Below, piece after piece: positions 21,519-44,847 of a stretch of 49,994 bases of DNA; position 1 is the first letter of the stretch, and each line of letters begins with the position of its first letter. The position numbers and the translations under genes were made by a program. A model generated the notes under the pieces. It did not search any database and had not been told where the DNA came from. It saw only the letters and a program-made list of their open reading frames with translations. The stretch is from an uncultured Syntrophus sp. (GTDB taxonomy: Bacteria; Desulfobacterota; Syntrophia; Syntrophales; UBA5619): positions 1-49,994 of the forward strand of contig CAZKHU010000005.1 of assembly GCA_964552725.1 (NCBI GenBank). The letters are read 5' to 3'.

Positions 21519-22355
21519 TTACCGGTAATAATCGCCGTGCAGTGAATCCACGAGAAAAGGAAGGGAAAATACAGTCAGCAGCGATACGGCGATGCAGATA
21601 ATCAAAACGGCGATGCCTTTTTTCCCCTTCCAGCCGAAGAAGCGGCGCAGGTGCAGATATACCCCCAGCAAGAGCCAGGTTATGAGCGACCAGGTTTCAA
21701 TCGGATCCCATCCCCAGTATCTTTCCCAACTTTCGTGGGCCCAGAGTGCGCCTGTGGCAATGGTAATTGTCCAGCAGCAAAAAGCGAAGGCCGTGATTTT
21801 GTAGATATAGTCGTCCAGAAGCTCCGCGGCGGGAAGCGTGGCCATAAATCGCGCCTGACTCCTCCCGCCCTTCAGCAGGTAGGCAACGATCAGCGCCATG
21901 ACGATGCAAAATGCGCCCACGGCCAGCTTTGTAAAAAAGACGTGGGGGAGAACCCAGAGGCTGTTAAAGCTCGCCGGAAGCATCGTGACCGCCGTACCGG
22001 AACAAAGGGCGGCCAGCGTCGCGAAAAGGGCAAGCGGCGCCACGAAAAGGCCGGAGAAGCGAATCTCCGGATGGCGGCGCGAAAGGTACAGAAACTGGCC
22101 AAGCATCACCAGGGCGCTGGAGGAGAGGACTTCATATCTGGTCAGATACGGACCGTGGAAGACATACGACCATCTCACCAGCAGCGCAAGGGTCTGGGGA
22201 AGCAAGCCGGCCAGGATGAACGTCATCCCGCAGGCAAGAGACTTGTTTTTGCCAAAGATCGTTCCCCGAAAGAAACAAAGCGTCGCCGCCAGATACGCCG
22301 TCATGGCAAGCCAGTGGAGCATGATTTCGTATTTAGCAAGGAGGGCGTTTTCCAT
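21519..22355 (-). CDS. ccsA: System II cytochrome c biogenesis protein CcsA/ResC (haem handling)
   Basis: WWD-type motif WGWDPIETWSLITWLL. Polytopic, 278 aa, and follows the ResB gene. Confidence 0.9.
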   Translation of the reverse strand: MENALLAKYEIMLHWLAMTAYLAATLCFFRGTIFGKNKSLACGMTFILAGLLPQTLALLVRWSYVFHGPYLTRYEVLSSSALVMLGQFLYLSRRHPEIRFSGLFVAPLALFATLAALCSGTAVTMLPASFNSLWVLPHVFFTKLAVGAFCIVMALIVAYLLKGGRSQARFMATLPAAELLDDYIYKITAFAFCCWTITIATGALWAHESWERYWGWDPIETWSLITWLLLGVYLHLRRFFGWKGKKGIAVLIICIAVSLLTVFSLPFLVDSLHGDYYR

Positions 22356-22358
22356 GAA

Positions 22359-25738: not shown

Positions 25739-26727
25739 TAATACTCCCTGAGATATTGAAATATCTGTATCCTGCCGTTATAGGAATCGGAGACAAATAT
25801 CCGGTCTTTTTCGTCAATAAAAATGGCAGAGGGAACGTAAAACTCGCCGCTTCTTGTCCCCCTCTGACCGAAGACCAGCAGCAACCGCCCTTTTTCATCA
25901 AAAATCTGTACAGCATCAAAGAGGCCATCGACGATGTAAATGTGGCCATCCCCATCCAGCGCCACCGCTTTCGGATTGGCAAAATCCCCGGTGGAATCAC
26001 CATGCCTGCCGAATTTAAAGAGGAATTTTCCCGTCTCCGAAAAAACCTGCAACCTCGCATTCAGCGTGTCGCAGACATAAACCCGGCCATCTTTACCGAT
26101 GGCAATGCCCGTGGGATAATTAAATTCGCCGTCGTTTGTCCCCCTCTTCCCCAATGACAGCAGTTTTTCTCCCGTCGGGCTGAATTTGAAAATCTGGTGT
26201 GCGCGCGTGTCGGAAATCCATACAGAATTATCCAGCGGCGATACAGCGACGGCTGTCGGCCGCAGAAAGGGAAAGCCGGCGGCAAATTCCCCGGTCAAGC
26301 CTCCCTGCCCGTTAAAAACAAGCACCTTTTTCATAACCGAATCAGTCACCAGCAGACGGCCATCAAGCGTGAAAGCGGCCCCGACCGGCGAGGTCAGCCT
26401 TGCCTTCCGGGGAACAATTATTTTATAGTTATTGTCTATTAAATCAAACAGGTGAAACCCGGCAAGGATTACGTCGGTAACGCATATCCGGTCTTTCCGG
26501 ACAGCGATGGCAAAGGGACGTCTGATCCCCTCCGGCTCGTCGCCGGCAATGAATTCCCATATTTTCTTGAAGAAGGACTTTTTAATCTTCAGATCGGAGG
26601 GCCCTCTTACCTCCTGGACAAATCTGATCCTCGATATCTCCGGCGGCGGCGGCCAGGTAAGCTCATCAGCCCATGCCGCATAAGGCAAAAGGAACAGGAT
26701 GACGATAGTGGAAGCAATTCTTCTCAT
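25738..26727 (-). CDS. NHL-repeat six-bladed beta-propeller protein (paralog 1)
   Basis: Signal peptide MRRIASTIVILFLLPYAAWA and WPPPPEISRIRF. Repeated (Y/F)VxDxxNxRxQ(V/I)F blades, ending IQIFQYL. TAATG overlap with the downstream cytochrome. Confidence 0.8.
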   Translation of the reverse strand: MRRIASTIVILFLLPYAAWADELTWPPPPEISRIRFVQEVRGPSDLKIKKSFFKKIWEFIAGDEPEGIRRPFAIAVRKDRICVTDVILAGFHLFDLIDNNYKIIVPRKARLTSPVGAAFTLDGRLLVTDSVMKKVLVFNGQGGLTGEFAAGFPFLRPTAVAVSPLDNSVWISDTRAHQIFKFSPTGEKLLSLGKRGTNDGEFNYPTGIAIGKDGRVYVCDTLNARLQVFSETGKFLFKFGRHGDSTGDFANPKAVALDGDGHIYIVDGLFDAVQIFDEKGRLLLVFGQRGTRSGEFYVPSAIFIDEKDRIFVSDSYNGRIQIFQYLREY

Positions 26728-26799
26728 ATTAAAATGCACCTCAAAGCCCGCGCTATCCACATCTTTGAAAAACGAGCCAATTGCAAAACTCCCAATTCT

Positions 26800-27708: not shown

Positions 27709-28500
27709 CTACTTTGTATGACATTCAAAGCACAAGGCGCTCCCCCTGTTGCTCCGGACAAGCATGGCCGGCAGAGTGGAGTAGAGATTATGACAGGAGC
27801 CGCAGCCGAGCTTCCCGTCAAACAATCTGATCCGCCTGTTGAGCAGTTCCTTCCTTCTATATCCGCCTTTTCTTGCTGCCTGTTGATAATCTCCGCCTAT
27901 GGGATGGCTGCCGGCATTCCCGGCGCCGTGTTGCCAGATGCCGCCGCCGATATTAACCACGCGCGCCCCGGCAAGTCCGCCATCATGGCAACCGAGGCAT
28001 TCCTGAGATTCACGGTCCAGAGGCTGACTGGGGTTTACCGTCTCGTACTGTGGCTGATGGAGCAAAGAAGAGACAACCTCATGCCCGTATTTATTTTTTT
28101 TGAAAAGCGTTTCCCGATGACAGCTCATGCAGAAGGCCTTCCCCGTTTTTTCTGCCACCAGCAAATATTTTCTGCTCCCGTGAATTTCATGGCAGGTCGC
28201 GCAGGTCATTTTTCCCGCCCAGTCCAGCCTGAATTCCGGCGGCAGCGGGAAGGACGGTTTCACCCCGTACGGATGAGACATGATGGTTCCAATCTGCGCA
28301 TGACATCCCCTGCAAAGCTTGTCCACATCGCTGACGAGCAGTATCTTTCCACCCTTCAAGGGCGTGTTGAGATGGCACTGGCCGCACTTGCCCTCGAAGA
28401 GGTGTTCTTTCTCCATGTTTCCTGCAAAAGCAAGCAATGCCGAAAACGCCCCGCTAAATAATAAAGCGATCAAGAACGGCCTGCATCTTTTCTGCGTCAT
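27709..28500 (-). CDS. Secreted heptahaem c-type cytochrome
   Basis: Signal peptide plus seven CXXCH sites (CGQCH, CRGCH, CATCH, CMSCH, CLGCH, CGSCH, CFECH). Confidence 0.85.
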   Translation of the reverse strand: MTQKRCRPFLIALLFSGAFSALLAFAGNMEKEHLFEGKCGQCHLNTPLKGGKILLVSDVDKLCRGCHAQIGTIMSHPYGVKPSFPLPPEFRLDWAGKMTCATCHEIHGSRKYLLVAEKTGKAFCMSCHRETLFKKNKYGHEVVSSLLHQPQYETVNPSQPLDRESQECLGCHDGGLAGARVVNIGGGIWQHGAGNAGSHPIGGDYQQAARKGGYRRKELLNRRIRLFDGKLGCGSCHNLYSTLPAMLVRSNRGSALCFECHTK

Positions 28501-29076: not shown

Positions 29077-31202
29077 TTAAAAAGGCCTCGAAACTGTCAA
29101 ATATATGGACTGCCGGCTGTAGGGACTGTTCGCGCCTGTCTCGTTGCGCCAATTGTGCTTGAGCTTGATCATTATCCGCCTTATGGAGAAATGCAATGCA
29201 TTTTCCATGCTATAAACCGTGCGCGCGGTGGAAGTTCCGGTTATTTGGCCTGCTGCATCGCCGGAATCCGTGACGGAATTATCCCATTCCCCGCGCAAGG
29301 TCATAGTAATAAAAAGGGCTCTCAGCGGCGCCGACCTGAAAATAAGCTGGCTGTAGAAGTAGCTTCTGTCGGTCTGGGAGCCGCCCCCTCCGCCCGACTC
29401 GCTGATCTGGCTGCTCAGCACACCGCCGCCGCTTATCGTGGCCATGTTAACCTCGGAAACGTAAGCAAGCCAGGCGTAGTTCATGTCGAGCTCGGTCGTG
29501 CGGGACAAATTGGAGTAGGGCTGAAACGTCGTATTCGCCCCCGCTTCCGTTGCCGCAACGATCGCGTCGTTTTTGCTGTCGTCCTGGCTGTAACGCAGTA
29601 AAGACTGAAGCTGAACCCGCGCCGAAGGGGAAACAGACCAGGCGCCGTTCGCTTGCCAGTTGGTCGTTCCGCCTCCTCCCGACGATGCGGACCTTATCGC
29701 CTGCGTCTGGAGGGTAACATTGGACTTCCACCAGTCATAGTCCCGGGAGGCGGAGGCGCCAAGCCCGGCGTTTCCGACTGCCTTGCTTGCGGCTACCGAT
29801 TGATTGCTGTTGTTCAACCCCATGTTTTCAAAGAAATTGAGATTCCAGAGCCCGACTTTCCTGTTGTAATTCATTCCGGCCGAGATATTTTCCGACGCGT
29901 TCGTCGCACCGCTTCCCGAATCCGTATATCCTGCCCCCATACTGGCGTTGACGCTAAGCTCGGGATTAAGCTGGCAGTTCGTGGAATTGGAGAAAAAAAG
30001 ATTCGTTCCCGCTCCCGCCTCCGAGCTGAAATAATAGACATTCAGGCTGCTGTTATTGCTGAATGCCTGCGACGGGCGATAACTGAAAGAGCTCGTCGAA
30101 TTGAGGTTAATGATGCTGCTTTCCTCCTGCAACCCCGTTTTAGGCGCTCTTTGGCCAATGATCCAGTTTATGCCGTTACTGATGATGGTGACCTCCACCC
30201 ACTGCGTCTGCAGGATGAGCGAACCGGCGCCGCCGATCGTCTCCGCTCCCGCCGGTTTGACGGTAACTCTGTTGGCCGTCGCATCGATCTTGACAATTGT
30301 GAAGGTGCGGCCGGCATCGCCCAGGGCGCTGGGGAGCGACGCCGTAAGATTCGCCAGAACGGCGTCAAACCTGACAATCTCATCAGCCCTGGTCAGCGTG
30401 TAATCGCTGTTTTTTGTTACCGTGGGGGAGGTAATGTCCTGAAATCTTCCCATTCTGCTCAACGAGTTAAACCGGAAATCCTGGCGAAAGGTCTTGCTTT
30501 CGGAAAATGTCTTTTCCAGATTCACCTGGGCGGCGTGCTCCCGGGTATTGTTGGTCTGCTCGATCTTGTCGGCCGTATCGGTAAAGGAATATGCGTAATT
30601 ACTTGAAAAACCGGAGAAGTCCTTATTGGCGCTGATTTGCAGACGTCGCACGCTTCTGTCGAGCCGCTGGTCTCCGTTCGAACCTTCCATACTGTTCTCG
30701 TCATAGTTGATGGCAACCGGAAAGGGCCGATAATTAAGGTTAAGCAACGCCCCATAATTTGTGTTCGTCTGCGATACCAGCGCGGAACCGGCGCTCGCCG
30801 TAAGAGGAACAAAACTGCTGAGGGACTCGCGGTTGGCGTAAAAAGAGGTATTGATGCGCCTCCCGGGAAAGAGCTCCGCCCTCGCATTGTACCCCAGATT
30901 GTCTATGCTCGAGGAGGCGCCGTTGGTCTCCGTATTGCCTTTGCCTATGGAAACGCCCAACTGGTAGTTCAGCAATCGGGGACTGAGGACAAAACTCTGG
31001 ACGTCAATCTTGTAGCGGTGTTCAAAGGAGCTGTAGGCGCTATGCTGGTCCTGACTGTCTTCCGTTTCATTCTTCGTTTCCACTTCAACCGCGCCGGCAA
31101 CATAATATTTCCCATAACGGGCCGCGGCGGCTGGAATCGTCCCCCCGAGAAGAAAAAAAAAACAATCAGCGCTGCGGCATGCCTAATCCCCGTAAACCTC
31201 AA
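29077..31202 (-). CDS. Large beta-barrel outer-membrane protein (porin-like), frameshifted in a T10 tract as assembled
   Basis: The main frame 29077..31083 is N/S/T/G/Y-rich with alternating strands and ends ...YLTVSRPF. A TTG at 31202 (RBS AAGGAG) encodes the signal-peptide-like MRFTGIRHAAALIVFFF. It runs into the homopolymer at 31153-31162, where the frame is lost by 1 nt. Confidence 0.6.
31153..31162 (-). repeat. Homopolymer (A10 on plus strand, T10 on the coding strand) inside the signal-peptide region of the barrel gene
   Basis: Counted directly: ...gagaag aaaaaaaaaa caatcag... Confidence 0.9.
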
Positions 31203-32199
31203 TTTTGGCGTTCTCCTTGAGAGACATTAGCAGATCGGCAAGCCTTTTTTCCACGGCTTTTTGCTCCAGTTCCTTTTTCAGTTTTTCCTTCACCTCTTCA
31301 AATTTCAACTGTTGCGGCGGGAACTTCTCCCCCGCCTTCAGGATATGATGACCGTAAAGGGAGGTCACGACGCCGCTCAGCTCCCCCGTCTTCAAGGCGA
31401 AGGCCGGTTTTTCGACATCGGGCTCCAGCCTGCCCCGGTGCACCACCCCCAGGTCGCCCCCCTTCACCCGGCTCGGGTCGTCGGAATTGTCCCAGGCGAG
31501 CCGCTGAAAGTCCTCTCCCTTTTTAAGCCGCACAAGCAGGGCCTCCGCCTTCTTTTTCAGTTTCTCCTTCTCCTCCCGCGGCGCCTCCGGCGGCACCCTG
31601 ATCAGGATATGAGAAAGACGCATCGCCTCCGGCTTCTGGAACTTCTCCCGGTTTTTCTGATAATAAGCGAGCAGCTCCGTATCTTTTAGCTCCGCCTTTT
31701 TATAGACCTCCTCCTTCAGGAAAAGCTCGGCCAGCATGATATGGTCGAGCTTTTTTCTCACATCCTTCTCGGTAAGGCCGTACTTTTTGAGAGCCTCCCG
31801 AAAGGCCTTTTTTGAGGGGTATTTCTTGACGATCTCGGCGAATCTTCTGTCGAGATCGTCTTTGGCCACCTTGTAACCCTTCTTGAGGCCTGCCCGGTAG
31901 AAAAGCTCCTCCTGGATCAAATTTTCGAGGGCCTTTTTCTCCAGCTCCTTTATCTTTTCCGGCGTCACATTGCGATGATAGGAAGCCTGGGGCAGAAGGG
32001 TCGCCACGGTCTCGTCGAGCTCGCTCTGAGTTACTACCATACCGTTTACTTTTGCCACAGTCTTAAGACGGGGATTTTGCTCCGCCGCAAAGAGCAGGGC
32101 AACGTTAAAAAAAACAAAAACGGCTACATACACCGTCATTGCGGGGTACCTGCGTAATATGCCAACCGGATCCTCGTCTATCAATACTTTTTTCTTCAC
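31183..32199 (-). CDS. Periplasmic PpiC-type peptidyl-prolyl isomerase / SurA-PrsA-like chaperone
   Basis: N-terminal TM/signal and a SurA-like helical N-domain. Parvulin block reads HILI....A....GEDF..LA...S.D...GGDLG....G.L. Confidence 0.85.
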   Translation of the reverse strand: MKKKVLIDEDPVGILRRYPAMTVYVAVFVFFNVALLFAAEQNPRLKTVAKVNGMVVTQSELDETVATLLPQASYHRNVTPEKIKELEKKALENLIQEELFYRAGLKKGYKVAKDDLDRRFAEIVKKYPSKKAFREALKKYGLTEKDVRKKLDHIMLAELFLKEEVYKKAELKDTELLAYYQKNREKFQKPEAMRLSHILIRVPPEAPREEKEKLKKKAEALLVRLKKGEDFQRLAWDNSDDPSRVKGGDLGVVHRGRLEPDVEKPAFALKTGELSGVVTSLYGHHILKAGEKFPPQQLKFEEVKEKLKKELEQKAVEKRLADLLMSLKENAKIEVYGD

Positions 32200-32232
32200 A
32201 GCATTTACCTTCGTTATTAAACTTGGCCGGTA

Positions 32233-33303
32233 TTATTTCAACAGATATTTTTTGTATTCTTCGGGATTTTCCTTCTTCCATCTCTCGCTGAGGTACTGAA
32301 ACACCTGCACCCGGTGGTTAAAGGAATCCCCTATATAGATCCTGTCTTTTTCATCCACATAGACGCCGGCCGGAAGCCAGAAATACCCGGGATCATGACC
32401 GGGGCCCCCGGTGAAAAGGAGAAGCTGTCCTTTTTCGTCAAATATCTGAAGGTTGTCAAATGCGGCGTCAGCCACATAGACGTGCCCCTCACTGTCAATG
32501 CCGATGCCTTTAGGCCGCGTAAATGTTCCGGGTGCATCACCGAGCTGTCCGAATCTCTTTATAAACTTGCCGTCTTTGTCAAAGACCTGAACCCTGAAGT
32601 TCTGAGTATCCACTATATAGACATTGCCGGTCTTTCTCTCGATGGCCGCATTGGAGGGATAATTAAACTCGCCGTCACCCGCTCCTCTCTGGCCAAAGGT
32701 GAAGAGCGGGTCTCCTTTGGTGGAATAGACATGCACCATATGTCCGTAGCTGTCCACGATATACAGCCTGCTGATATCGTTATTGATTGCAATGCCACCC
32801 GGGTTCTTGAACTCATCCTTTTTTCCGAGGGCGATTTTCAGATCACCTTTCGCGTCATAACCAAACACCCGTTTCTGCTTGGCATCGGCCACAAAAACTG
32901 TGCCGTCTTTAGAAACTGCAACACCTGCCGGCAGAGAAAGCTTTCCCGGTCCTTCCTGTCCTAAAAAGGTGACTTTTTGCTCCTTAGGGTTGAAGACAAA
33001 CAAACTGGCGCTATCCGTATCGGTGACATAAATATTATCGCCAAAGGCGGCAACACCGTAGGGTTTCCTGAGTTCCGTGCTGAAGGGTGTCTCCCCGAGA
33101 AGTGCTTCCAAAACCCCTGGCTTTTTAAAGTCGCCTTCTCCCTTATAGCTGTTAACATAGACCAGGCGCGGTTCTTCGGGAGGAAGGGGCCACAGCAGTT
33201 GAGCTTCCTTCTTGGGTGTGGGAGCGGCGCAGCCAAGCATCAAAGCAGCGATGATAGTCAAACTAAATATGCGCAAAAACTTAGTATTGTTGTGTACCAT
33301 CAT
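32233..33303 (-). CDS. NHL-repeat six-bladed beta-propeller lipoprotein (paralog 2)
   Basis: Lipobox LMLGCAAP and WPLPPEEPRLVY. Repeated YVxDxxNxRVQVF blades, ending VQVFQYL. Confidence 0.85.
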   Translation of the reverse strand: MMVHNNTKFLRIFSLTIIAALMLGCAAPTPKKEAQLLWPLPPEEPRLVYVNSYKGEGDFKKPGVLEALLGETPFSTELRKPYGVAAFGDNIYVTDTDSASLFVFNPKEQKVTFLGQEGPGKLSLPAGVAVSKDGTVFVADAKQKRVFGYDAKGDLKIALGKKDEFKNPGGIAINNDISRLYIVDSYGHMVHVYSTKGDPLFTFGQRGAGDGEFNYPSNAAIERKTGNVYIVDTQNFRVQVFDKDGKFIKRFGQLGDAPGTFTRPKGIGIDSEGHVYVADAAFDNLQIFDEKGQLLLFTGGPGHDPGYFWLPAGVYVDEKDRIYIGDSFNHRVQVFQYLSERWKKENPEEYKKYLLK

Positions 33304-33372
33304 GGTCCAAACCTATTCACGGTTAAGTAAACTTATCTTAATGATGTTTTGACGCCGCTATGAAAATCCCTC

Positions 33373-33432
33373 GTCATTCCTCAGGAGTTACGAATCCGGA
33401 AACCCTGAATTCCGGGTTGCTCGCGAAATAAC
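33373..33432. repeat. Degenerate REP-like element (GTCATTCC... type)
   Basis: GTCATTCCTCAGGAGTTACGAATCCGGAAACCCTGAATTCCGGGTTGCTCGCGAAATAAC resembles the GTCATTCCCGC/GGAATCC family seen at 26800. Confidence 0.3.
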
Positions 33433-33504
33433 AAAAACAGCGCTGTGTAAAATTAGGATTTTCTGCGGCACCCGTTACCATAAATCTGTAAAAGTATAAT
33501 TCCA

Positions 33505-33867
33505 TTACGTTTTCAAGATGGCATTAATCCAAGACCAGTTGGCCAGTTGCCGGATTGCTAACTTATTTGCCGCCATCTCTGCCAAGCCGAATTCGGCTTG
33601 AGTTGTGGCAACATCCAAGGCATCAAAGACGCGATTGGCGAAGTAGTCGCGTCTGAGTATGTTCCATAGTTGCTCCGCCGGATTCAGCTCCGGTGAATAG
33701 GGCGGCAGTCGAATAAAGGACATGTTCTTTGGAATCTTAAGCTCCTTGCTTCTGTGGGATGATGCTCCGTCCAGCACCATGACGATGAACTGGCCCGGGT
33801 GTGCTTTGCTGACTTGATCCAAGAAACGGGACATGTTTTCCGTACTGATTTGAGTCTGTCTCGCCAT
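33505..33867 (-). pseudogene. IS630-family DDE transposase, C-terminal remnant
   Basis: VLDGASSHRSKEL...LPPYSPELNPAEQLWNILR is the third catalytic block (DDE_3). Only about 120 of an expected ~340 aa are present. Confidence 0.7.
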
Positions 33868-33912
33868 GGCTCACCTCCATGTCGAGTATATATCACAGTG
33901 TCAACTTGAAAT

Positions 33913-33939
33913 AGTGGAGGAGACTTCTCTCCCCCCACT
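33913..33939 (-). terminator. Possible intrinsic terminator after the last small cytochrome gene
   Basis: Minus strand reads AGTGGGGGGAGA-GAAG-TCTCCTCCACT followed by ATTTCAAG. The stem is GC-rich, about 11 bp with one bulge. The U-run is short. Confidence 0.35.
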
Positions 33940-33957
33940 ATTTTTAAAGCAAATATT

Positions 33958-34701
33958 TCACTTCACATGGCAGGCTAAACATAGGGCGCTGCCGGTATTG
34001 CTTACTCTTAAGAACAGGGCGCCTGCCGTTCCACCACCGTCTACGCTGTCTCCCGAGGCAGCATGGGGATCGTGACAGCTCGAGCACTCAACTTTGGATG
34101 CCTCTGACACACCTTTTATTTCGGTTGCAGATAGTACCTTGGCCGTGGCAGAGGCTGTCCCATTCGGGGCCCTTAGACTTGCTTTAGCCGTGGTGTATAC
34201 AATGGATACAGGATGGTCATTGCCAAGCGCCTCTCCGATTCTGGTTACCCCATCAGGCATAAGAAGCGCGGTATCAAGACTGGTAACAGGGTTAGCCCAT
34301 GCCACCTTTGTACCGGCGGCGAGATATCCACCCGAACCAGCTTGATTAACAACAGAGTTGATGGCACTGACTCCGTCGTGGCAGGAGAGACATGCCTTTG
34401 TTACGGTATTCGGTGTGCTGTCGGGCGCAGTGCCTGCCAATGTATTCCCGTACATGGTATAGTTGCCTGTTGCTGCTGCCTTGTTCCATAGCGGGCCTGC
34501 TGCTGTATTGGCCATATGAGGAGTATGGCAGTACACGCAAATTTCATTGTTTTGACCACCACTATTGTCAATGCCATTGGAAGCGAGCGACAAATTATGT
34601 TTTGTTGTGATGATCCCCGCCTTGGCGATCTGGGCCACCATCAGGATCGAAACCATTGCGATCATGACCAAGAGCATTGTTTTTGTAATTGACTTTTTCA
34701 T
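33958..34701 (-). CDS. Small secreted tetrahaem c-type cytochrome (paralog A)
   Basis: Signal peptide plus CVYCH, CLSCH, CSSCH and CLACH. Shared scaffold is KHNLS..CxxCHTPH..PLWN..YTMY..CLSCHDG..NDHPVS..ECxxCHDPH..SALCxACHVK-stop. Strong RBS AGGAG. Confidence 0.85.
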   Translation of the reverse strand: MKKSITKTMLLVMIAMVSILMVAQIAKAGIITTKHNLSLASNGIDNSGGQNNEICVYCHTPHMANTAAGPLWNKAAATGNYTMYGNTLAGTAPDSTPNTVTKACLSCHDGVSAINSVVNQAGSGGYLAAGTKVAWANPVTSLDTALLMPDGVTRIGEALGNDHPVSIVYTTAKASLRAPNGTASATAKVLSATEIKGVSEASKVECSSCHDPHAASGDSVDGGGTAGALFLRVSNTGSALCLACHVK

Positions 34702-34839
34702 TTTTTCTCCTTTCAGTTAGTTTCTATGAAATCATTTCTTTTTTCAACTTTTCTTCTGTCCGAAAAATCCCCCTGCCTCATCTCCCTTTGCATTCTTTCC
34801 TTAAGACTAAACTATCAAGCCGCTTTGTATTAATGATGG

Positions 34840-34855
34840 AGCACATACCATGCCA
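34840..34855 (-). promoter_or_regulatory. Sigma54 (-24/-12) promoter candidate
   Basis: Minus strand TGGCATGGTATGTGCT against consensus TGGCACG-N4-TTGCW. The GG and GC are correctly spaced. It lies about 140 nt upstream of the ATG at 34701. Confidence 0.6.
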
Positions 34856-34876
34856 GCAGTTACTATTGCCGATTCC

Positions 34877-35551
34877 CTATTTGATGTGGCATCTCAGGCA
34901 AAGGGCGCTGCCGCCGTTGGTTGCCCGCAGGAACGGCGCGTTTGTATTGTCGTGCACATTGTGGCAACTCGCGCATTCCACCTGGTTCTTCAAAGTCCCA
35001 TAGAGGGGCAGGCCGTTTACCGCGCCGCTTGCCGGCACAACAAAGGCCGGGTCTTTTGAGGCATCGTAGGTTACCGATATGGGGTGGTCGTTGCTCAGGT
35101 CGGAGCCCAGCATGGCCGAGGGACTTGTCGCTGCCGTCATCGTGTTTCCGGCGGCATTCCACGTCCAGCCGCTGGGAGCGCCGCTGCCGGAGCCGGGTTT
35201 GTTGAGCAGGGAATCGAAGGCCACTGTGCCGTCATGGCAGGACAGACAGGCCGCCGACACCCCCTGGGGATTGGCCGCTACGGTCATATCAATGGTGGCG
35301 CTGACGCTGCTGCTGTACATGGTGTAGGTTGCCGCGGAAGCCGATCTGTTCCACAGCGGCGCTGAGGAAGAAGAAAAATGCGGCGTATGGCAAAACACGC
35401 AAACCTGGTCAGTGCCGGTTGTTTTATAGGGAGAGCCGCCCGTGGCGGAGGAAAGGTCGTGTTTGGAACCCACCACCGAGGCTGCCCGGAGCGCCGGGAC
35501 ATTAAAGAATATGATCATTATGCCTGTTAAAAGAAAAACTTTGCATTTCAT
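34877..35551 (-). CDS. Small secreted tetrahaem c-type cytochrome (paralog B)
   Basis: Starts MKCKVFLLTGIMIIFFNVPALRA. Haem sites CVFCH, CLSCH, CASCH and CLRCH. The ORF-track extension to 35710 only translates a REP element. Confidence 0.85.
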   Translation of the reverse strand: MKCKVFLLTGIMIIFFNVPALRAASVVGSKHDLSSATGGSPYKTTGTDQVCVFCHTPHFSSSSAPLWNRSASAATYTMYSSSVSATIDMTVAANPQGVSAACLSCHDGTVAFDSLLNKPGSGSGAPSGWTWNAAGNTMTAATSPSAMLGSDLSNDHPISVTYDASKDPAFVVPASGAVNGLPLYGTLKNQVECASCHNVHDNTNAPFLRATNGGSALCLRCHIK

Positions 35552-35580
35552 CTTTGCGTTTACCAGATTCGTAGTCTCTC

Positions 35581-35603
35581 CTGGGTGATATGCCCCACCC
35601 ACA
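35581..35603. repeat. Single copy of the 22-bp motif TGGGTGATATGCCCCACCCACA
   Basis: Identical to 36599-36620. It lies 30-52 nt upstream of the paralog B start codon. Confidence 0.7.
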
Positions 35604-35623
35604 TGCGTCATTTCACCCAATTT

Positions 35624-35685
35624 GTCATTGCGAGGGCGAATCCCGTGGCAGTCCCATGAGATTGCTTCGCTTCGCTCGCAATGAC
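35624..35685. repeat. REP-like element (GTCATTGCGAG ... CTCGCAATGAC)
   Basis: 11-bp perfect inverted arms at 35624-35634 and 35675-35685. It translates to the recurrent RFARND peptide seen in spurious ORFs. Confidence 0.6.
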
Positions 35686-35694
35686 AGGACAAAG

Positions 35695-36393
35695 TCACTT
35701 GTTGTGACATTTATAGCAAAGAGCGCTCCCCGTATTCGCTATCCTCAAAAAAGGCACCCTGGCCGGATCGTGGACATTATGGCAGGTGGCACATTCCACC
35801 TTGCCGGAGAAAAGCGGCACGTCGGACCAGCCCTTTTGAAAATCCGGAGGGACCAGAAACCCCGCATCCTGGGCCGCCGTCGGATAAATCATCGAAATGG
35901 GGTGGTCATTCGTGAGATTGGGACCGACCGCCGGTATTGAGTACATTGATCCGCCATGAGAGTCGTGACACGCGGCGCAGCTTATGGAATAAGTCCCCGT
36001 CAAACCTGAACCCGGCGCATTGATAACTGCGTGGGTATAAGTCGCAGTCGCAGCCTCGGGGGCGCTGACGCTGTCGTGGCAACCCAGGCAGGCCAGCGAA
36101 AGCCCGCTGGGCCGGGAGGGGATTGTTGTGTCTATGGTCGGACTGGTGTACATGGTAAAGGCGTCAAAGTTGAAATCGGCGCTTTTTTTATTCCACAGGG
36201 GAGCGGCAATTGTGGCGCTTGCAAAATGGGGGGTATGGCAGTGGACGCAAACCTCTCCTCCGGCCACGCTGATATCGTGCTTCGATCCTACCACCGAGGC
36301 GGCCCGGACAGCCGGCGCATTAAACGCCATGACTGTTATCATTGTGAAAAGAAAAACTTTCTGCCTGATTTGTTTGCCCATCAACTCCGCCAT
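35695..36393 (-). CDS. Small secreted pentahaem c-type cytochrome (paralog C)
   Basis: Signal peptide ...AFNAPAVRA. Haem sites CVHCH, CLGCH, CAACH, CATCH and CYKCH. Same scaffold as A and B with one inserted haem site. An alternative start is Met5 at 36381. Confidence 0.85.
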   Translation of the reverse strand: MAELMGKQIRQKVFLFTMITVMAFNAPAVRAASVVGSKHDISVAGGEVCVHCHTPHFASATIAAPLWNKKSADFNFDAFTMYTSPTIDTTIPSRPSGLSLACLGCHDSVSAPEAATATYTHAVINAPGSGLTGTYSISCAACHDSHGGSMYSIPAVGPNLTNDHPISMIYPTAAQDAGFLVPPDFQKGWSDVPLFSGKVECATCHNVHDPARVPFLRIANTGSALCYKCHNK

Positions 36394-36457: not shown

Positions 36458-36473
36458 AGCAAAAGGCGCGCCG
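36458..36473 (-). promoter_or_regulatory. Sigma54 (-24/-12) promoter candidate
   Basis: Minus strand CGGCGCGCCTTTTGCT. GG and GC are separated by 10 nt and the TTGCT -12 box is present. It lies about 65-77 nt upstream of the paralog C start. Confidence 0.55.
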
Positions 36474-36598: not shown

Positions 36599-36637
36599 TG
36601 GGTGATATGCCCCACCCACAATGGGGCATATCACCCA
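36599..36637. promoter_or_regulatory. Perfect 16-bp-arm palindrome, candidate enhancer (UAS) or operator
   Basis: TGGGTGATATGCCCCA (36599-36614), 7 nt, then TGGGGCATATCACCCA (36622-36637). Its centre is about 150 bp upstream of the sigma54 promoter at 36458-36473. A competing 7-bp stem TGTGGGT/ACCCACA spans 36597-36620. Confidence 0.45.
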
Positions 36638-36685: not shown

Positions 36686-37708
36686 TCAGCGGGCGGCTTT
36701 ACTCTTCAGATATTGAAAGACGTTTATCCGTTTATTATATTGATCGGCGACGTAGATTTTATCATCCGCGTCGATATACATCCCCGCGGGGAGCCAGAAC
36801 TGCCCCGGCTTGTTGCCCATCTCTCCGAAAAACATCAGCAGTTGCCCCTGCTCGTCAAAGATTTGCACGTTGTTGAAGGCGGAATCGACGACATAGATAT
36901 GGCCGTCGCTATCGACCGCGATCCCCTTGGGACGGGAAAACATCCCCGGCGCGTCGCCTACTTTACCGAATTTGCTAATAAATTTACCGTCGGCGTCGAA
37001 TACCTGCACGCGGAAATTCATCGAGTCGCTGACATAGACCTTGCCGTTTTTACTGACAAAGACATTGGTCGGGTAGTTGAACTGGGCATCCCCGTCGCCG
37101 CGGCTCCCCACCACCGCCACCTGTTTTCCCTCCTTCGAATAGATGAACAACTGGTGTTTGTTGGTGTCCACGATATACACCCTGTCCAGGGCGTCGTTCA
37201 CGGCGATCCCGGTCGGCTGCAGGAAGGCGCCCTTTTCACCGATGACCCGCGCGTACTTTCCGTCTTTGTCAAAGACAACCACCCTATCCTGCTTGGTGTC
37301 GGAGACATACATGTTTCCCGCCGCATCGGCCGCAATCCCGATCGGCTTGGCGAGAAACCCCTTCCCCTCCAGCCCCGCATGAAAGTACTTCTTGTTTTTT
37401 ATGTCAAAAACAACTGCCCGGCCAATGCCCGTATCGGTCACGATTACCCGATCCCTGCCGGCAAAAACACCGTAGGGCTTGCCCAGTCCCATCCCGACGT
37501 CCGATTCTCCGAGGAGCGTGGTCAGCAGTTTCTGGCTGCCTGTTTGCTCCTGCACATCATTGGAGCTTTCATAGGTTCTTAAATACCTGATCCGCGGCTC
37601 ATCCGGGGGAAGCGGCCAGACCAGCTCCACCTCTTTTTTAACCTCCGCCCCCGCGCAGGCAAAAAGAAGGAATGCCAATCCTATCCAGTATAAACGCTTT
37701 CTTCTCAT
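36686..37708 (-). CDS. NHL-repeat six-bladed beta-propeller lipoprotein (paralog 3)
   Basis: MRRKRLYWIGLAFLLFACAGA lipobox and WPLPPDEPRIRY. NHL blades, ending INVFQYL. Confidence 0.85.
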   Translation of the reverse strand: MRRKRLYWIGLAFLLFACAGAEVKKEVELVWPLPPDEPRIRYLRTYESSNDVQEQTGSQKLLTTLLGESDVGMGLGKPYGVFAGRDRVIVTDTGIGRAVVFDIKNKKYFHAGLEGKGFLAKPIGIAADAAGNMYVSDTKQDRVVVFDKDGKYARVIGEKGAFLQPTGIAVNDALDRVYIVDTNKHQLFIYSKEGKQVAVVGSRGDGDAQFNYPTNVFVSKNGKVYVSDSMNFRVQVFDADGKFISKFGKVGDAPGMFSRPKGIAVDSDGHIYVVDSAFNNVQIFDEQGQLLMFFGEMGNKPGQFWLPAGMYIDADDKIYVADQYNKRINVFQYLKSKAAR

Positions 37709-37733
37709 CGAACACCTCGCTATGTCCACACCC

Positions 37734-39122
37734 TCAAATGCCGAATTTCTGCATCCGGTACCTCAGCGTATCCCTTGTTACCTTAAGCAGCCTGGCTGCC
37801 TGTGCCTGATTGCCGTTTGTCATATTGAGCGCTTGCAGAATACATTCCTTTTCCACCCTGGCCAACGCAATTCCCTCTTCCGGGACGGTGACCGCCAAAG
37901 CCGTTACCGTTGCGTTGCCGCTTTGCGCCATTGCATCACTCGCGACAGGTCTTTTTATCTCCAAAGGAAGATGATCCGGCAAAATGGTGTCCGCGTCCAC
38001 GTCGGCAAGGATCATGACCCGCTCAATCACATTTCTCAATTCCCGGACGTTGCCAGGCCAGTGGTATTGCAGGAGCAGTTCCTCCGCCCCTTTTGAAAGG
38101 TAGCGGATATCTCTTTTGAATTCCCTGTTCAGTTGGCCGATGATGTTCATCGCGATGGTCACGATATCCTGTTTTCTTTCGCGGAGCGGCGGGATATAAA
38201 TGGGCAGCACCTTCAAACGGTAAAAGAGATCCTCGCGGAAATTGCCCGCTTCCACCTCCCGTTCGAGTTTGCGATTGGTGGCGGCGATAATGCGGACATC
38301 CAGGCTGATATCCTTGCTGCCGCCGATATGTTTGAAGGTCTTTTCTTCCAGCACCCGCAGCAGTTTCACCTGCGTGGAAGGTTTGACATCGCCGATCTCG
38401 TCCATATACACCGTGCCGCCCTCGGCTGCCTCAAAGAGTCCTTTCTTGGCGCTCTTGGCGTCCGTGAAGGCGCCCTTCTCAAAACCGAACAGCTCGCTTT
38501 CAATCAGGGTCTCCGGCAGCGCCGTGCAGCTTATTTCCAGAAAGGGTCTTGTCGCCCGGCCGCTCTCATAATGGATAATTTTTGCCAGCAGGTCTTTGCC
38601 GACGCCGCTCTCTCCCTGGATCAGCACCGTGGAACAATCCGTCGCGGCGACCTTTTTTGCCAGCGACAAAACCTCCATCATATTGGCGGAACAGGTGGTA
38701 AAGCGCTCAAAGGAATAGTGGCCGCTGCCCGCTATTCTCAGTTCGCGCACCTCTTTTTTAAGACGGGCCGTTTCGAGCGCCCGGTTCGCTATGATCCTCA
38801 CCGATTCAAATTCAAAGGGCTTTTCTATATAATCGTAGGCGCCTGCCTTGATGGCGGAAACGGCGTTTTCCACGCCGCCAAAGGCGGTAATGATGATAAT
38901 GATAACATCCCTGTTGAGCTGTTTGAGCTCTTTGAGAACGTCCAGACCGTTTTTGTCGGGAAGTTTGACATCGAGAAAGACAATCTCGGGATTATTCTCC
39001 TTAAAACAATTGATGCCCTCCCGGGCAGTGCCGGCGGTAAAGACATCAAACCCTTCCTTTTCGAACTCCTTCTTCAAGGACCAGCACATCAAATTTTCAT
39101 CATCCACGACCAGCAATTTCAT
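37734..39122 (-). CDS. Sigma54-dependent response regulator (NtrC-type enhancer-binding protein)
   Basis: REC domain (MKLLVVDDE...FLDVKLPD). AAA+ domain with GESGVGK and ESELFGFEKGAFTDA (a GAFTGA variant). Fis-type HTH at the C-terminus. The ORF-track start at 39191 is an extension. Confidence 0.9.
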   Translation of the reverse strand: MKLLVVDDENLMCWSLKKEFEKEGFDVFTAGTAREGINCFKENNPEIVFLDVKLPDKNGLDVLKELKQLNRDVIIIIITAFGGVENAVSAIKAGAYDYIEKPFEFESVRIIANRALETARLKKEVRELRIAGSGHYSFERFTTCSANMMEVLSLAKKVAATDCSTVLIQGESGVGKDLLAKIIHYESGRATRPFLEISCTALPETLIESELFGFEKGAFTDAKSAKKGLFEAAEGGTVYMDEIGDVKPSTQVKLLRVLEEKTFKHIGGSKDISLDVRIIAATNRKLEREVEAGNFREDLFYRLKVLPIYIPPLRERKQDIVTIAMNIIGQLNREFKRDIRYLSKGAEELLLQYHWPGNVRELRNVIERVMILADVDADTILPDHLPLEIKRPVASDAMAQSGNATVTALAVTVPEEGIALARVEKECILQALNMTNGNQAQAARLLKVTRDTLRYRMQKFGI

Positions 39123-39129
39123 CTGCAGC

Positions 39130-40626
39130 TCACCTTTTTTCGTCAACGGCGGGGAGATAAACCTCGAAGGTCGTACCCTCCCCCACTTCACTTTCCACCT
39201 CTATAAAACCGCCATGCTCCTCAACAATCTGGGCGCTTATCGAAAGCCCCAGTCCGGTGCCGCTTTTCTTGGTTGTAAAAAACGGATCAAAAATCCCGAC
39301 CAGATTCTCCTCGGCAATCCCGCTCCCCGTGTCTTTGATCATGATCTCAACGTATTCTCCGGGACCTTCAACACGCTCTTTGTATGTCATGGCCACGGCG
39401 ATATCGAGAACGCCCTTTTCCTGCATGGCCTCGATGGCGTTGAGACAAATGTTCAAAAACACCTGTCTCAACGCCTTGCCGTCGGCATATACTTTTTTAA
39501 TCCCTTCACCGACGGAAACATTGACTTCGATAGATTTTTGATTGGCAAACTGACTGATTAACAACAGCGTTTCCTGTAGAACTTCGTCAATGGCCGTCAA
39601 CTTTTTCTCGGCGCTCACAGGCTTCGCAAATTCAAGTATTTTTTTTACCGTGCCGTCCAGACGCTTTATCTGATTCACGACTTCCCTAATTACCATCTTG
39701 TGTTCATTTTTTTCTTCAAGGTCGCCTTCGATCACCTGCAGAGCGGCGCTGATGCAGGCGAGGGGATTTTTAATCTCATGAGTGATGCCGGAGGCAATCT
39801 CGCCGATCATGGCCATCTGGGAGGCTCTTTTCATCTGCGCCCGGTGACACGCTTCCACTTCCTTCTGGGATTCGCTTATTCTCCAGGTCATGGAATTAAA
39901 CTTTTCCGCCAGCCTTCCTATGATATCATTGTGTTTTACGGTAACTCGCTTTTTAAAATTTCCATCTTCGACATACTGTATCATTTCCATGATCTCGTCC
40001 AGCGGTTCATGGATCAACTTGATTACGATAAAGGAAAAAACGAGGGAAAAAAGGACAATCGAAAGCAGGGCGAACCATACGTTATCAATAAGAATAGGCC
40101 GAACAAGCGAAGAGACCGCAACCATCGGGATTTTCACCCCAATGACGCCGAGCACGCCCCTGTCGGCAGAATGACACTTCCGACAGGAGGGCATGTTTGT
40201 AATGGGCAAAAATCTCATAAAATACTTCGTTCTGTTTTCTACAATGAAAAAAATCTCCCCGTTGCCATGCTTCGCGTATCCTTCATAATCCGCTTCCCCC
40301 AACCTCCGGCCCACGTCAAATCTTTGGGAAGACGCTATTATTACACCATTCTCCGGCCTGAATATCTGCAACATCCCGATTTTTTTATGTAAGGCGGCAT
40401 TTTCCACAAAATCTTGCACTTCAGCGCATTTGTTCTGGAGCATCAACATGCTTACGCCACTCAGGATGCAGTTGGAGATGTTCATTACCTTCTCTTGCTG
40501 GTACGCACTATTCTCTTTTCTTACCGACTTATACTGATTTACCGTCCCCAGGCCGATGATGATCACGAAGGCCGCAATGGTTATGCCGATTAGCTTCTGG
40601 TTTAAACTGACGTTTAACATTCTCAT
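39130..40626 (-). CDS. Sensor histidine kinase with a periplasmic CXXCH-containing sensor domain and HAMP
   Basis: TM1, a ~130 aa periplasmic domain ending NMPSCRKCHSADRGVLGV, TM2 and HAMP. H-box SGITHEIKNPL and HATPase GTGLGLSIS. Confidence 0.85.
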   Translation of the reverse strand: MRMLNVSLNQKLIGITIAAFVIIIGLGTVNQYKSVRKENSAYQQEKVMNISNCILSGVSMLMLQNKCAEVQDFVENAALHKKIGMLQIFRPENGVIIASSQRFDVGRRLGEADYEGYAKHGNGEIFFIVENRTKYFMRFLPITNMPSCRKCHSADRGVLGVIGVKIPMVAVSSLVRPILIDNVWFALLSIVLFSLVFSFIVIKLIHEPLDEIMEMIQYVEDGNFKKRVTVKHNDIIGRLAEKFNSMTWRISESQKEVEACHRAQMKRASQMAMIGEIASGITHEIKNPLACISAALQVIEGDLEEKNEHKMVIREVVNQIKRLDGTVKKILEFAKPVSAEKKLTAIDEVLQETLLLISQFANQKSIEVNVSVGEGIKKVYADGKALRQVFLNICLNAIEAMQEKGVLDIAVAMTYKERVEGPGEYVEIMIKDTGSGIAEENLVGIFDPFFTTKKSGTGLGLSISAQIVEEHGGFIEVESEVGEGTTFEVYLPAVDEKR

Positions 40627-41645: not shown

Positions 41646-42856
41646 TTGCCGCCGGTCTTTAAGATTTCCTCCAAGGCCTGCTTATAGTAACCGTTGGCCC
41701 TGGCATATTCGCCCTTCTCCGCAAAAAATTTGCCGATCTTGTTCATGATCTCCGGCGACTTGTTGCTCAGGGAAGCGGCATGGGCAAAAGAGGCTTCCGC
41801 CTCCTCCCGCAAACCCTTACCATAGGAAATAAAGCCGGAATAGACATAGGCGTCCGGGGTTTCTTCCCTGGTCAGGCTTTCAGCAAACATCTTCATGGCT
41901 TTGTCTGCATCCTTGTCATGATAATACAGCTTTCCCCTGCTCATCTTCACGGCCGGATCATCCAATATGGCTGCATCGATCTTTGCCGGCAATGCCCTTG
42001 CCTCATCGATCCGCTTCAAACTCAAATACAATTCCATCAGCCGGACGATAGGTTTGACATATTTGGGATCGGCTTTCAAGGCTTTTTCGTAAAGATCGAC
42101 AGCCCTGTCATAATCCTTTTTCTTTTCAAACTTGCGCCCCATCTGATAGGACAACATTGCCAGCTTGACGGGCCGGTAAACCTCCTGCTCCACCAATCGT
42201 TTATCACCCAGAAAGTATCCGACCTCTTCAAAAAAAAGTTGGGAACCGACAAGGGGAAAGCCGGACATCTCCCGGCTGATCACCAGGTTGTTATCAAGCA
42301 AGATCAAGGTGGGCAGGGCAATAACTCCCAGTTTGTCAAACAGCGTCAAACCGAAATCTACAAACATGGGGAAGGTAAGTCCTTCGGAAGCCGCCTTTAT
42401 TTTCTTGAGATCCTCCTCGGTGATATTCTGTTCCTCCACGTTAACAGCCACTATTTCCAGACCCTGCTGCTTCCACTTGGCGTAATTCGTCTCCAGCAGT
42501 CTTAGGGCCCTCTGGGAATTTTTCGTCGAGGTCTGCCAGAAAATCAACAACGTCCCCTTTTTACCCGCAAGCTCCGTCAAAGAGAAACTCTTACCCGCCG
42601 CATTGCTGACGGAAAAAGGGGGAATTGCCTCTCCCGTTTGCAAATCCCGCAGCGCGGAGACGCATTCAGGGGAAAAGACGATAAAAGAAAATACAGCCAA
42701 GAATAAGGCTCTTGCAAAAGTCTTCAAGAGAGATTGCTTCGTTGTTCCTCCTCGCAATGACAATCGTTCCGAGTAGTTGGTCATTGCGAGCGAAGCGCGG
42801 CAGTCCCGGTTTTGTGACTTTTGCAATTGCCTCAAGAGTAACAACAATTTTTTCAT
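41642..42856 (-). CDS. Thioredoxin-fold (TlpA/ResA-like, active-site Cys absent) plus TPR protein
   Basis: Redoxin-like block GKKGTLLIFWQTSTKNS..., followed by several TPR-like repeats. The ATG at 42856 overlaps the upstream stop (ATGA), but codons 15-43 translate a REP element. An alternative TTG start at 42727 gives MKTFARALFLAVFSFIVFSPECVSA. Confidence 0.6.
   Translation of the reverse strand: MKKLLLLLRQLQKSQNRDCRASLAMTNYSERLSLRGGTTKQSLLKTFARALFLAVFSFIVFSPECVSALRDLQTGEAIPPFSVSNAAGKSFSLTELAGKKGTLLIFWQTSTKNSQRALRLLETNYAKWKQQGLEIVAVNVEEQNITEEDLKKIKAASEGLTFPMFVDFGLTLFDKLGVIALPTLILLDNNLVISREMSGFPLVGSQLFFEEVGYFLGDKRLVEQEVYRPVKLAMLSYQMGRKFEKKKDYDRAVDLYEKALKADPKYVKPIVRLMELYLSLKRIDEARALPAKIDAAILDDPAVKMSRGKLYYHDKDADKAMKMFAESLTREETPDAYVYSGFISYGKGLREEAEASFAHAASLSNKSPEIMNKIGKFFAEKGEYARANGYYKQALEEILKTGGK
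42729..42807. repeat. REP-like element of the same family as 35624-35685
   Basis: GAGATTGCTTCG...CTCGCAATGAC (42729-42761) and GTCATTGCGAGCGAAGCGCGGCAGTCCC (42780-42807) match the two halves of the 35.6 kb copy. Confidence 0.6.
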
Positions 42857-44745: not shown

Positions 44746-44761
44746 TGCAAATATTCTGCCA
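44746..44761 (-). promoter_or_regulatory. Sigma54 (-24/-12) promoter candidate for the cytochrome operon
   Basis: Minus strand TGGCAGAATATTTGCA, with 12 of 12 core positions except two flanking ones. It lies about 80 nt upstream of the ATG at 44666. Confidence 0.6.
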
Positions 44762-44831: not shown

Positions 44832-44847
44832 TGGAACAGATATTGCA
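44832..44847 (+). promoter_or_regulatory. Sigma54 (-24/-12) promoter candidate for the hybrid kinase
   Basis: TGGAACAGATATTGCA lies 48 nt upstream of the GTG at 44895. It is divergent from the 44746 promoter. Confidence 0.5.

Follow-up and report, generated by a model that had tools for sequence, protein, structure and literature searches.

What three small cytochrome genes in tandem contribute to a bacterium of the order Syntrophales is the question raised by a 49,994-nt stretch of DNA from an uncultured Syntrophus sp. (GenBank assembly GCA_964552725.1, contig CAZKHU010000005.1, positions 1 to 49,994), which is called the window in the following. The organism is known from metagenome-assembled genomes (MAGs) only. 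The three genes, here named paralogues A, B and C, are read in the order C-B-A and encode multihaem proteins of 224 to 247 aa. Judging from sequence comparison and modelling, we consider it rather probable that the three genes encode subunits of extracellular cytochrome "nanowires" that belong to the OmcE family. A first-pass annotation of the same DNA had already proposed candidate filament subunits with bis-His haems, and this proposal is now supported by the homology to OmcE, the conservation of the haem ligands, the predicted fold of C and the context of the gene cluster. The filament role as such we infer from homology.

Relationship of the three proteins to OmcE

The earlier description of three secreted cytochromes with four, four and five haem motifs agrees with our results as to coordinates, numbers of CXXCH motifs (A 4, B 4, C 5) and predicted signal peptides. 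Cleavage is predicted behind AKA (before G) in A, behind LRA (before AS) in B and behind VRA (before AS) in C. Translation of B starts at the ATG at position 35551, giving the N-terminus MKCKVFLL. A 277-aa version of B, which corresponds to the longest open reading frame (ORF) and starts from position 35710, is unlikely, as it overlaps C and translates a palindromic repeat. For C, the public gene call begins four codons later and yields 228 aa instead of 232 aa. All motifs of the ordered scaffold that the proteins had been said to share were found invariant in a three-way alignment. Their order is KH(D/N)(L/I)S, C..CHTPH, PLWN, CL(S/G)CHD, NDHP, VEC..CH..H, FLR and SALC..CH.K, followed by the stop codon. 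Pairwise identity amounts to 35% between B and A and to 47% between B and C. After the predicted cleavage, A and B each contain 8 His and 8 Cys, and C contains 12 His and 10 Cys. The composition was likewise described correctly, the mature proteins being rich in Ser, Thr, Ala and Gly (45% in A, 45% in B and 38% in C) and poor in charged residues (10-12%).

The relationship to OmcE was found by phmmer searches with A, B and C against all chains of the PDB, in which matches were considered up to E <= 10. The OmcE nanowire of G. sulfurreducens (7TFS) was matched with E-values of 7e-21 by A, 2.1e-43 by B and 3.2e-18 by C. The corresponding values for 9YUQ, the OmcE homologue DSOUD_2954 of Desulfuromonas soudanensis that was solved as antiparallel filament bundles, are 9.4e-20, 4.8e-29 and 3.5e-15. 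The alignments with OmcE cover the full length of A, B and C, from the signal peptide through the last residue, and hence the likeness is not a matter of chance. B is 44-46% identical to the G. sulfurreducens protein; the two OmcEs with proven filament formation share less with each other, namely 41% (bioRxiv 10.1101/2025.10.22.684050). Of the likeness to known filament cytochromes that had been suggested before, the part concerning OmcE stands as a relationship in sequence. The remainder does not: OmcS (6EF8) gave local matches around haem motifs, from A only (E 3.7e-4), and the archaeal filament cytochromes 8E5F/8E5G (PcECN/AvECN) did not appear in the three PDB searches at E <= 10. Pfam returned generic families only for A, B and C, namely Paired_CXXCH_1, Cytochrome_C7 and Cytochrom_c3_2, and the matches to the latter two are short, marginal stretches. 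A model specific for OmcE is absent from Pfam and NCBIfam, which returned generic multihaem models.

To assess the ligands within the family, homologues were scanned in one genome per species. Relatives were found in more than 555 species, the best 80 loci (L001-L080) were analysed, and 106 OmcE-like proteins from these 80 loci were aligned. All three proteins possess the four CXXCH columns (120, 213, 481 and 561), as do 104-106 of the 106 relatives. The four distal His, located in KH, TPH, NDH and CxxCHxxH, are likewise found in each of the three and in 105-106 of the 106. The same eight ligand residues have been named as conserved by others (bioRxiv 10.1101/2025.10.22.684050). The count of eight His for four bis-His haems, given earlier for mature A and B, is correct and holds across these 106 relatives. 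Bis-His ligation of all four haems would accordingly be expected, on the grounds of sequence, in A, in B and in the core of C. In filaments of OmcE and OmcS, a histidine of one subunit ligates a haem of the next, and in OmcE it is haem 2 that takes a His from the adjacent subunit (PMC12203936).

A test at the level of the fold covers C, for which an AlphaFold2 model was calculated from 118 homologues (predicted local distance difference test, pLDDT, 75.8; predicted template modelling score, pTM, 0.74). In a Foldseek search against the PDB this model retrieved a single match, which is again 7TFS (E 1.4e-7, template modelling (TM) score 0.56/0.62). The fold of OmcE consists for the most part of coil and has the shape of a "Pac-Man". 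It had been proposed to check the models for a closed c3-like fold, and no such fold was matched by C. An identity as class III cytochrome c3/c7 was considered as a candidate and rejected, given the short and marginal Pfam matches and given that no c3/c7 structure was matched either by sequence (phmmer with A, B and C against the PDB) or by fold (the model of C).

C carries one CXXCH more than the other two proteins, as had been noted, but the extra motif does not make it an oddity. The fifth motif (CAACH) lies in alignment column 304 and is shared with 13 of 16 five-haem homologues. About 20 residues before it, H121 of C, within THAVINAPGSG, aligns with a His that is conserved in the same subgroup, for instance in KHDLVNAPGPG of locus L057. 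The fifth CXXCH and the extra conserved His bring C to ten ligand His for five haems. The insert is of low confidence in the model, with residues 129-131 and 141-147 below pLDDT 50. Proteins with five CxxCH and an OmcE-like length were proposed as a possible "leaky" nanowire family, and AlphaFold 3 models place their fifth haem exposed to solvent (bioRxiv 10.1101/2025.10.22.684050). By its sequence features, that is, the extra CXXCH column, the upstream His and the OmcE-like length, C is a member of this recognised five-haem subgroup. What distinguishes it is the setting: C adjoins canonical four-haem paralogues within a complete OmcE-type cluster, which is not described in the preprint, where the words "paralog", "tandem" and "heteropolymer" are absent (bioRxiv 10.1101/2025.10.22.684050).

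The surrounding cluster and its expression

The array is embedded in a 23-kb island on the minus strand (Table 1). In the order of transcription, this island starts with genes for a 13-haem cytochrome, a tetratricopeptide repeat (TPR) protein, a thioredoxin-TPR protein and an 8-haem cytochrome, and continues with a histidine kinase, a sigma-54 response regulator, an NHL lipoprotein, C, B and A. Behind A follow a DDE_3 fragment, a second NHL lipoprotein, a SurA-like peptidyl-prolyl isomerase (PPIase) and the 668-aa barrel, and at the end two small membrane proteins, a seven-haem cytochrome, a third NHL protein, a ten-haem cytochrome, ResB and CcsA. At the edge of the island, beside ccsA, a full-length-looking DDE_Tnp_1 transposase of 636 aa is encoded (19432-21342, minus strand).

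Table 1. Positions of the array genes, the genes around them and the regulatory elements in the window.
Feature	Position	Strand	Characteristics
Paralogue A	33958-34701	minus	247 aa, four-haem OmcE-like, chimeric
Paralogue B	34877-35551	minus	224 aa, four-haem; of the three, nearest to OmcE
Paralogue C	35695-36393	minus	232 aa, five-haem OmcE-like; first gene of the array
Sigma-54-like -24/-12 element CGGCGC-N5-TTGCT	36458-36473	minus	65-80 nt upstream of C
Sigma-54-like -24/-12 element TGGCAT-N5-GTGCT	34840-34855	minus	in the B-A spacer
C-B spacer	35552-35694	minus	REP-like palindrome and conserved hairpin (GGGTGAAATGACGCATGTGGGTGGGGCATATCACCC)
Sigma-54-dependent response regulator and sensor histidine kinase	37734-40626	minus	Pfam Sigma54_activat (E 2.4e-65), HisKA, HATPase_c
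NHL six-bladed beta-propeller lipoprotein upstream of the array	36686-37729	minus	Pfam NHL (E 6.7e-33), lipobox LFAC
DDE_3 (IS630-type) transposase fragment between A and the next NHL gene	33505-33867	minus	Pfam E 8.8e-17, C-terminal part of the profile only
Second NHL beta-propeller lipoprotein	32233-33303	minus	Pfam NHL (E 1.3e-33), lipobox LGC
SurA-like peptidyl-prolyl isomerase (periplasmic chaperone)	31183-32199	minus	Pfam Rotamase, SurA_N
Large outer-membrane beta-barrel	29077-31202	minus	668-aa ORF at 29077-31083; signal peptide in another frame
Seven-haem cytochrome	27709-28500	minus	7 CXXCH, Pfam Paired_CXXCH; syntenic in L003 and L024
Third NHL beta-propeller protein	25738-26760	minus	Pfam NHL (E 1.2e-28)
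Ten-haem cytochrome	23768-25738	minus	N-terminal OmcE-like module and six haem motifs
ResB and CcsA	21519-23771	minus	system II cytochrome c maturation; Pfam ResB, Cytochrom_C_asm

The OmcE cluster as published comprises two multihaem cytochromes, two beta-propeller lipoproteins, OmcE and a large beta-barrel, next to resB/ccsB, and a large beta-barrel and a beta-propeller lipoprotein nearby, together with two multihaem cytochromes, were used by Petersen et al. for the selection of nanowire-competent homologues (bioRxiv 10.1101/2025.10.22.684050). The cluster of the window corresponds to this definition, with the barrel gene out of frame by one base. Two of its three NHL propeller genes carry lipoboxes. 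Of the 80 loci, 74 have NHL genes alongside the OmcE-like genes and 30 have a PPIase gene. Nearly the whole gene order is reproduced in two Nitrospirota loci (L003 and L024), and part of it in many phyla. The genes for the response regulator and the histidine kinase immediately precede the cluster, and their synteny is kept in L003, L008, L017, L027, L043, L081 and L083. No glycosylation genes were found beside the cluster among the annotated genes of the window, which makes it one of the "minimal" type.

The ten-haem cytochrome begins with a complete OmcE-like module (residues 1-236), which is 34% identical to B (E 2e-37) and contains all eight conserved His; six more haem motifs follow. Such a module with an extension of extra haems is encoded in 27 of the 80 loci, across phyla. 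It is plausible that this protein serves as a filament base or as an adaptor that links the filament to the barrel.

The AlphaFold2 model of the barrel shows about 28 long strands, and the protein ends in SRPF. The best Foldseek match is MtrB (6R2Q_B, E 9.8e-7), followed by other large outer-membrane barrels; a match to the MtrB family was obtained neither in Pfam nor in NCBIfam. The tblastn and phmmer searches with the 668-aa protein missed most barrels at other loci, whereas a family hidden Markov model recovered 14 of them, each directly downstream of the OmcE gene. The main reading frame of the barrel is open from the stop codon of the PPIase gene but lacks a start codon. The start codon and the first half of the signal peptide lie in another frame, where a TTG at 31200-31202 opens the sequence MRFTGIRHAAALIVFFFF, and the two frames join in a run of ten T (31153-31162). 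The same T10 run and frame break occur in L081 (~13405-13505) and L082 (~3790-3905). In intact homologues of 707-749 aa, the signal peptide is in one frame with the barrel. The gene is also intact in L083 (5953-6000), a genome ~96% identical to the window. It reads GC+T10 where the window reads G+T10, so that the window is one base short. Phase variation, transcriptional or ribosomal (programmed) slippage and an assembly error in the homopolymer are all possible explanations. Programmed frameshifting was downgraded in view of the in-frame gene of L083, phase variation or an assembly error being at least as likely.

A small beta domain (TFTIVKIDATANRVTVKPAG...NGINWIIG) is inserted in the barrel at ~30140-30440 (residues ~215-315). 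Most columns that are invariant in the barrel family fall within this domain, which the shorter homologues of Nitrospirota lack. No relative was found in PDB or Pfam; weak matches occur in three unrelated proteins.

As to expression, each gene had been credited with a promoter of its own. For C and A this is consistent with the sigma-54-like sites before these genes, while none was found before B. In L081, the site in the B-A spacer is kept in place (TGGCAC-N5-GTGCT), and in L082 a similar site precedes the first gene of the array. A further sigma-54-like site, with one mismatch, lies before the upstream cytochrome operon. The sites upstream of C and A are suggestive of promoters. Scans for sigma-70 promoters and terminators between 33300 and 37000 remained at background level, and no promoter-like site was seen there on the minus strand. 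The C-B spacer is predicted to fold strongly as RNA (-53.5 kcal/mol, z = -3.8) and is free of sites resembling promoters or terminators; co-transcription of C and B is probable. Farther upstream, two divergent sigma-54-like sites with one mismatch each (44746-44761, minus strand; 44832-44847, plus strand) are located between the 13-haem operon and a gene for a hybrid PAS histidine kinase/response regulator.

Two sequence elements were observed in the spacers. A hairpin of ~36 nt (GGGTGAAATGACGCATGTGGGTGGGGCATATCACCC) occurs at 35583-35620 and 36600-36636, and in three genomes (the window, L081 and L082) it stands just upstream of B-type and C-type genes. The copy upstream of C belongs to a 14-bp perfect palindrome, which might pair in alternative ways. 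Rfam gave no match in the window, this hairpin included. The second element is a repetitive extragenic palindrome-like (REP-like) repeat (GTCATTGCGAGCGAAGCGAAGCAATC...CTCGCAATGAC) at 35625-35685 and 42780-42805, with copies in L081 too. In spurious ORFs it is translated into CHCERSEAIS and RFARNDR peptides.

Turnover of the array and the weighing of alternatives

The composition of the array differs between closely related genomes. Two of them, L083 (GCA_023229765.1) and L081 (GCA_054640795.1), are ~96% identical to the window in DNA over the flanks. L081 contains C (85% identity), B (98%, or 97.7% to one decimal) and a different third gene with 43% identity to A. In L083, C (94%) is accompanied by the same other third gene as in L081, and B is lacking. 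A look-up with the exact sequence of B retrieved no public contig. The array of L082 consists of two five-haem genes and one four-haem gene. MAGs that bear the names Syntrophales and Smithellaceae encode relatives of C with 85% (P0002) and 71% (P0007) identity. In L081, the stretch before the C orthologue (~9830-9930) retains the 3'-end of another C-type gene as a remnant (...CHDVHDPSDIPFLRIANTGSALCYKCHNK*), and this, too, speaks for a turnover of genes in the array.

Recent tandem duplication was considered as the origin of the array and rejected, because every paralogue resembles proteins from other phyla more than it resembles the two beside it. A shares 55% identity with a Sulfurimonas protein, its nearest types being found in Campylobacterota and Nitrospirota; B is 55% identical to proteins of Nitrospirota and Acidiferrobacterales; and C reaches 50% identity with five-haem proteins from an Acidobacteria MAG and from an unclassified bacterium (BMS3Bbin08). 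The paralogues therefore appear as old lineages that were brought together. For A, the boundaries of such an exchange can be located. At the DNA level, the window and L081 cease to be homologous ~113 nt into A, just past the signal peptide, and become so again at ~32120 inside the PPIase gene, which indicates the replacement of 2.5 kb comprising mature A, the insertion sequence (IS) fragment and the second NHL gene. Relative to L081 and L083, the replacement cassette spans 32120-34588 and also takes in the 5' end of the PPIase gene. The second NHL gene is absent at that position in both genomes. The G+C content of the cassette (0.49-0.52) is lower than that of B (0.59) and also below that of C. 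Since A keeps the native signal peptide and has a foreign mature domain, the gene is chimeric. In a search of 5.8 billion proteins, the best-matching relative of A reached only 61% identity. A donor-like order, OmcE-NHL-PPIase, is found in the Sulfurimonas locus L045, which among the loci also provides the best match to the second NHL protein.

That paralogues are replaced so quickly between near-identical genomes may point to selection acting on the surfaces of the filaments. In D. soudanensis, surface loops mediate the antiparallel bundling of filaments between cells, and these loops are not conserved across the family (bioRxiv 10.1101/2025.10.22.684050). One could go further and regard the array as a strain-variable "surface-skin" nanowire locus, in which the invariant ligand core, with signal peptide, KH arm and four CXXCH motifs, is kept and the mature domains are swapped as cassettes between lineages. 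Bundling loops would be diversified in this way and the wiring to partners tuned, with C providing exposed haem taps, the ten-haem protein acting as a base adaptor in the barrel and slippage in the poly-T run serving as an on/off switch. We hold this extended idea to be improbable.

If A, B and C are filament subunits, the following course of events can be envisaged. Each product would be exported by the Sec system via its cleavable signal peptide, be loaded with c-type haem in the periplasm by the adjacent system II proteins ResB/CcsA and pass to the cell surface via the MtrB-like barrel, assisted by the NHL lipoproteins and the SurA-like chaperone. Outside the cell, the subunits would polymerise head to tail in the manner of OmcE, a conserved His completing the ligation of haem 2 of the neighbour. 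This ligation between subunits would result in a continuous, protein-insulated haem chain. B may represent the OmcE-like subunit proper and A a second four-haem type. C would combine the four-haem core with a fifth bis-His haem on an inserted loop, presumably solvent-exposed by analogy with the published predictions. The three genes would most likely give rise to alternative homopolymers, and the sigma-54 two-component system encoded nearby may govern their expression from the site before C, which would probably serve B as well, and from the site before A.

Several points weigh against a filament role. OmcE-like tetrahaem proteins are very widespread, with more than 3,200 clusters at E <= 1e-20 in one search and relatives in more than 555 species in another, and not all of them need form filaments. 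Even in Geobacter, the physiological role of cytochrome filaments is disputed (PMC11077965). The barrel lacks an in-frame start and signal peptide here and in two relatives; if this is real, export may be off. Finally, the sigma-54 pattern is not enriched over the window as a whole, where 20 matches compare with 24 expected.

It could thus be asked whether the proteins polymerise at all. As surface or periplasmic tetra- and pentahaem carriers, they could work together with the MtrB-like barrel and the seven- and ten-haem conduit, as terminal reductases or shuttles like MtrC/OmcA or c3/c7. Such a role would suit the Pfam assignments, all of them to generic families, and the best structural match of the barrel, MtrB being the sheath of a trans-outer-membrane cytochrome conduit, and in a family so huge and taxonomically broad two members only have been seen as filaments. 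We nevertheless judge it unlikely, as the model of C matched the OmcE filament alone and no c3/c7 structure, as the four distal His for four haems are invariant, including the one that in OmcE serves haem 2 of the neighbour and for which a monomer would have no use on its own haems, and as the relation to OmcE extends over the full length, beyond the haem motifs. Another alternative accepts the filament but assumes that A, B and C co-assemble in one heteropolymer. By analogy with chaperone-usher pili, B could, for example, form the bulk, C could be interspersed as haem "taps", and A or the ten-haem protein could be the tip, base or terminator. Since both solved OmcE filaments (7TFS and 9YUQ) are homopolymers, and the paralogues, at only 35-47% identity, are less alike among themselves than each is to proteins from other phyla, this appears to us quite unlikely. 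The varying number and identity of paralogues across ~96% identical genomes is also hard to fit with an obligate architecture of several subunits. On the other hand, the same eight ligand His and the N- and C-terminal motifs recur in all paralogues, so the chemistry of the contacts could be compatible, and the structured C-B spacer without a promoter-like site suggests co-transcription. The fusion of an OmcE-like module to six or seven further haems at 27 loci would also suit a mixed filament, and how OmcE polymerisation ends is a question posed by the authors of the preprint themselves (bioRxiv 10.1101/2025.10.22.684050). On balance, homopolymeric filaments of the OmcE type remain our preferred reading.

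Comparison with known systems

The OmcE family, the type of cluster and the five-haem variant have already been described, and the advance made here is incremental. New are the tandem array of four- and five-haem genes in a lineage of the Syntrophales, the cassette-like exchange within this array, the chimerism of gene A and the barrel gene that is out of frame. To date, Geobacter and Desulfuromonas are the only genera in which filaments of the OmcE type have been observed, and our literature search found no paper that links OmcE to Syntrophales or related taxa. If the filament reading is true, the multi-paralogue cluster extends cytochrome-nanowire biology to organisms of interspecies electron transfer. 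Moreover, four-haem ("insulated") and five-haem (putatively "leaky") subunits stand side by side with one export system, which offers a natural test of separate versus mixed filaments.

The first 19 kb of the window carry a metabolic gene set that fits a syntroph. Between 108 and 18906, genes were found for a TRAP transporter (DctPQM), a family III coenzyme A (CoA) transferase, an acyl-CoA dehydrogenase, the alpha and beta subunits of an electron transfer flavoprotein (ETF) and a flavoprotein like ETF-quinone oxidoreductase (ETF-QO). The B12-binding and catalytic subunits of methylmalonyl-CoA mutase, hydantoinase A/B-type enzymes and an ArsP-type permease are encoded in the same region.

Among the systems with which the cluster can be compared, MtrB of the MtrCAB complex (6R2Q chain B) concerns the barrel. 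It is the best structural match and, like the window protein, a large outer-membrane barrel with 26 or more strands. However, sequence identity is ~8% and the TM-score is low (0.34), and the window barrel differs by the inserted, highly conserved small beta domain without known relatives. OmcS (6EF8) shares haem stacking and inter-subunit His ligation with OmcE according to the literature, but it is unrelated in sequence to the three proteins. It also carries six haems and has a length of about 400 aa.

DSOUD_2954 (9YUQ) is closer, with full-length homology to all three proteins (E 4.8e-29 to 3.5e-15). Its cluster is likewise "minimal", without glycosylation genes, and likewise contains beta-propeller lipoproteins, a large beta-barrel and two multihaem cytochromes. 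It differs in that its bundling loops are not conserved in the family, while the array of the window is multi-paralogue and strain-variable. With OmcE of G. sulfurreducens (GSU0618; 7TFS), the proteins share full-length homology, a signal peptide followed by KHDLS, the C-terminal LC..CH.K, the positions of four CXXCH motifs and four distal His and, in the model of C, the fold. The Geobacter cluster includes a block of glycosylation genes (bioRxiv 10.1101/2025.10.22.684050), whereas none adjoins the cluster of the window. The hosts differ as well, Geobacter being a metal reducer and the host of the window a member of the Syntrophales with syntroph-type metabolism. Where G. sulfurreducens has one gene, the window carries three tandem paralogues, one of them with a fifth haem.

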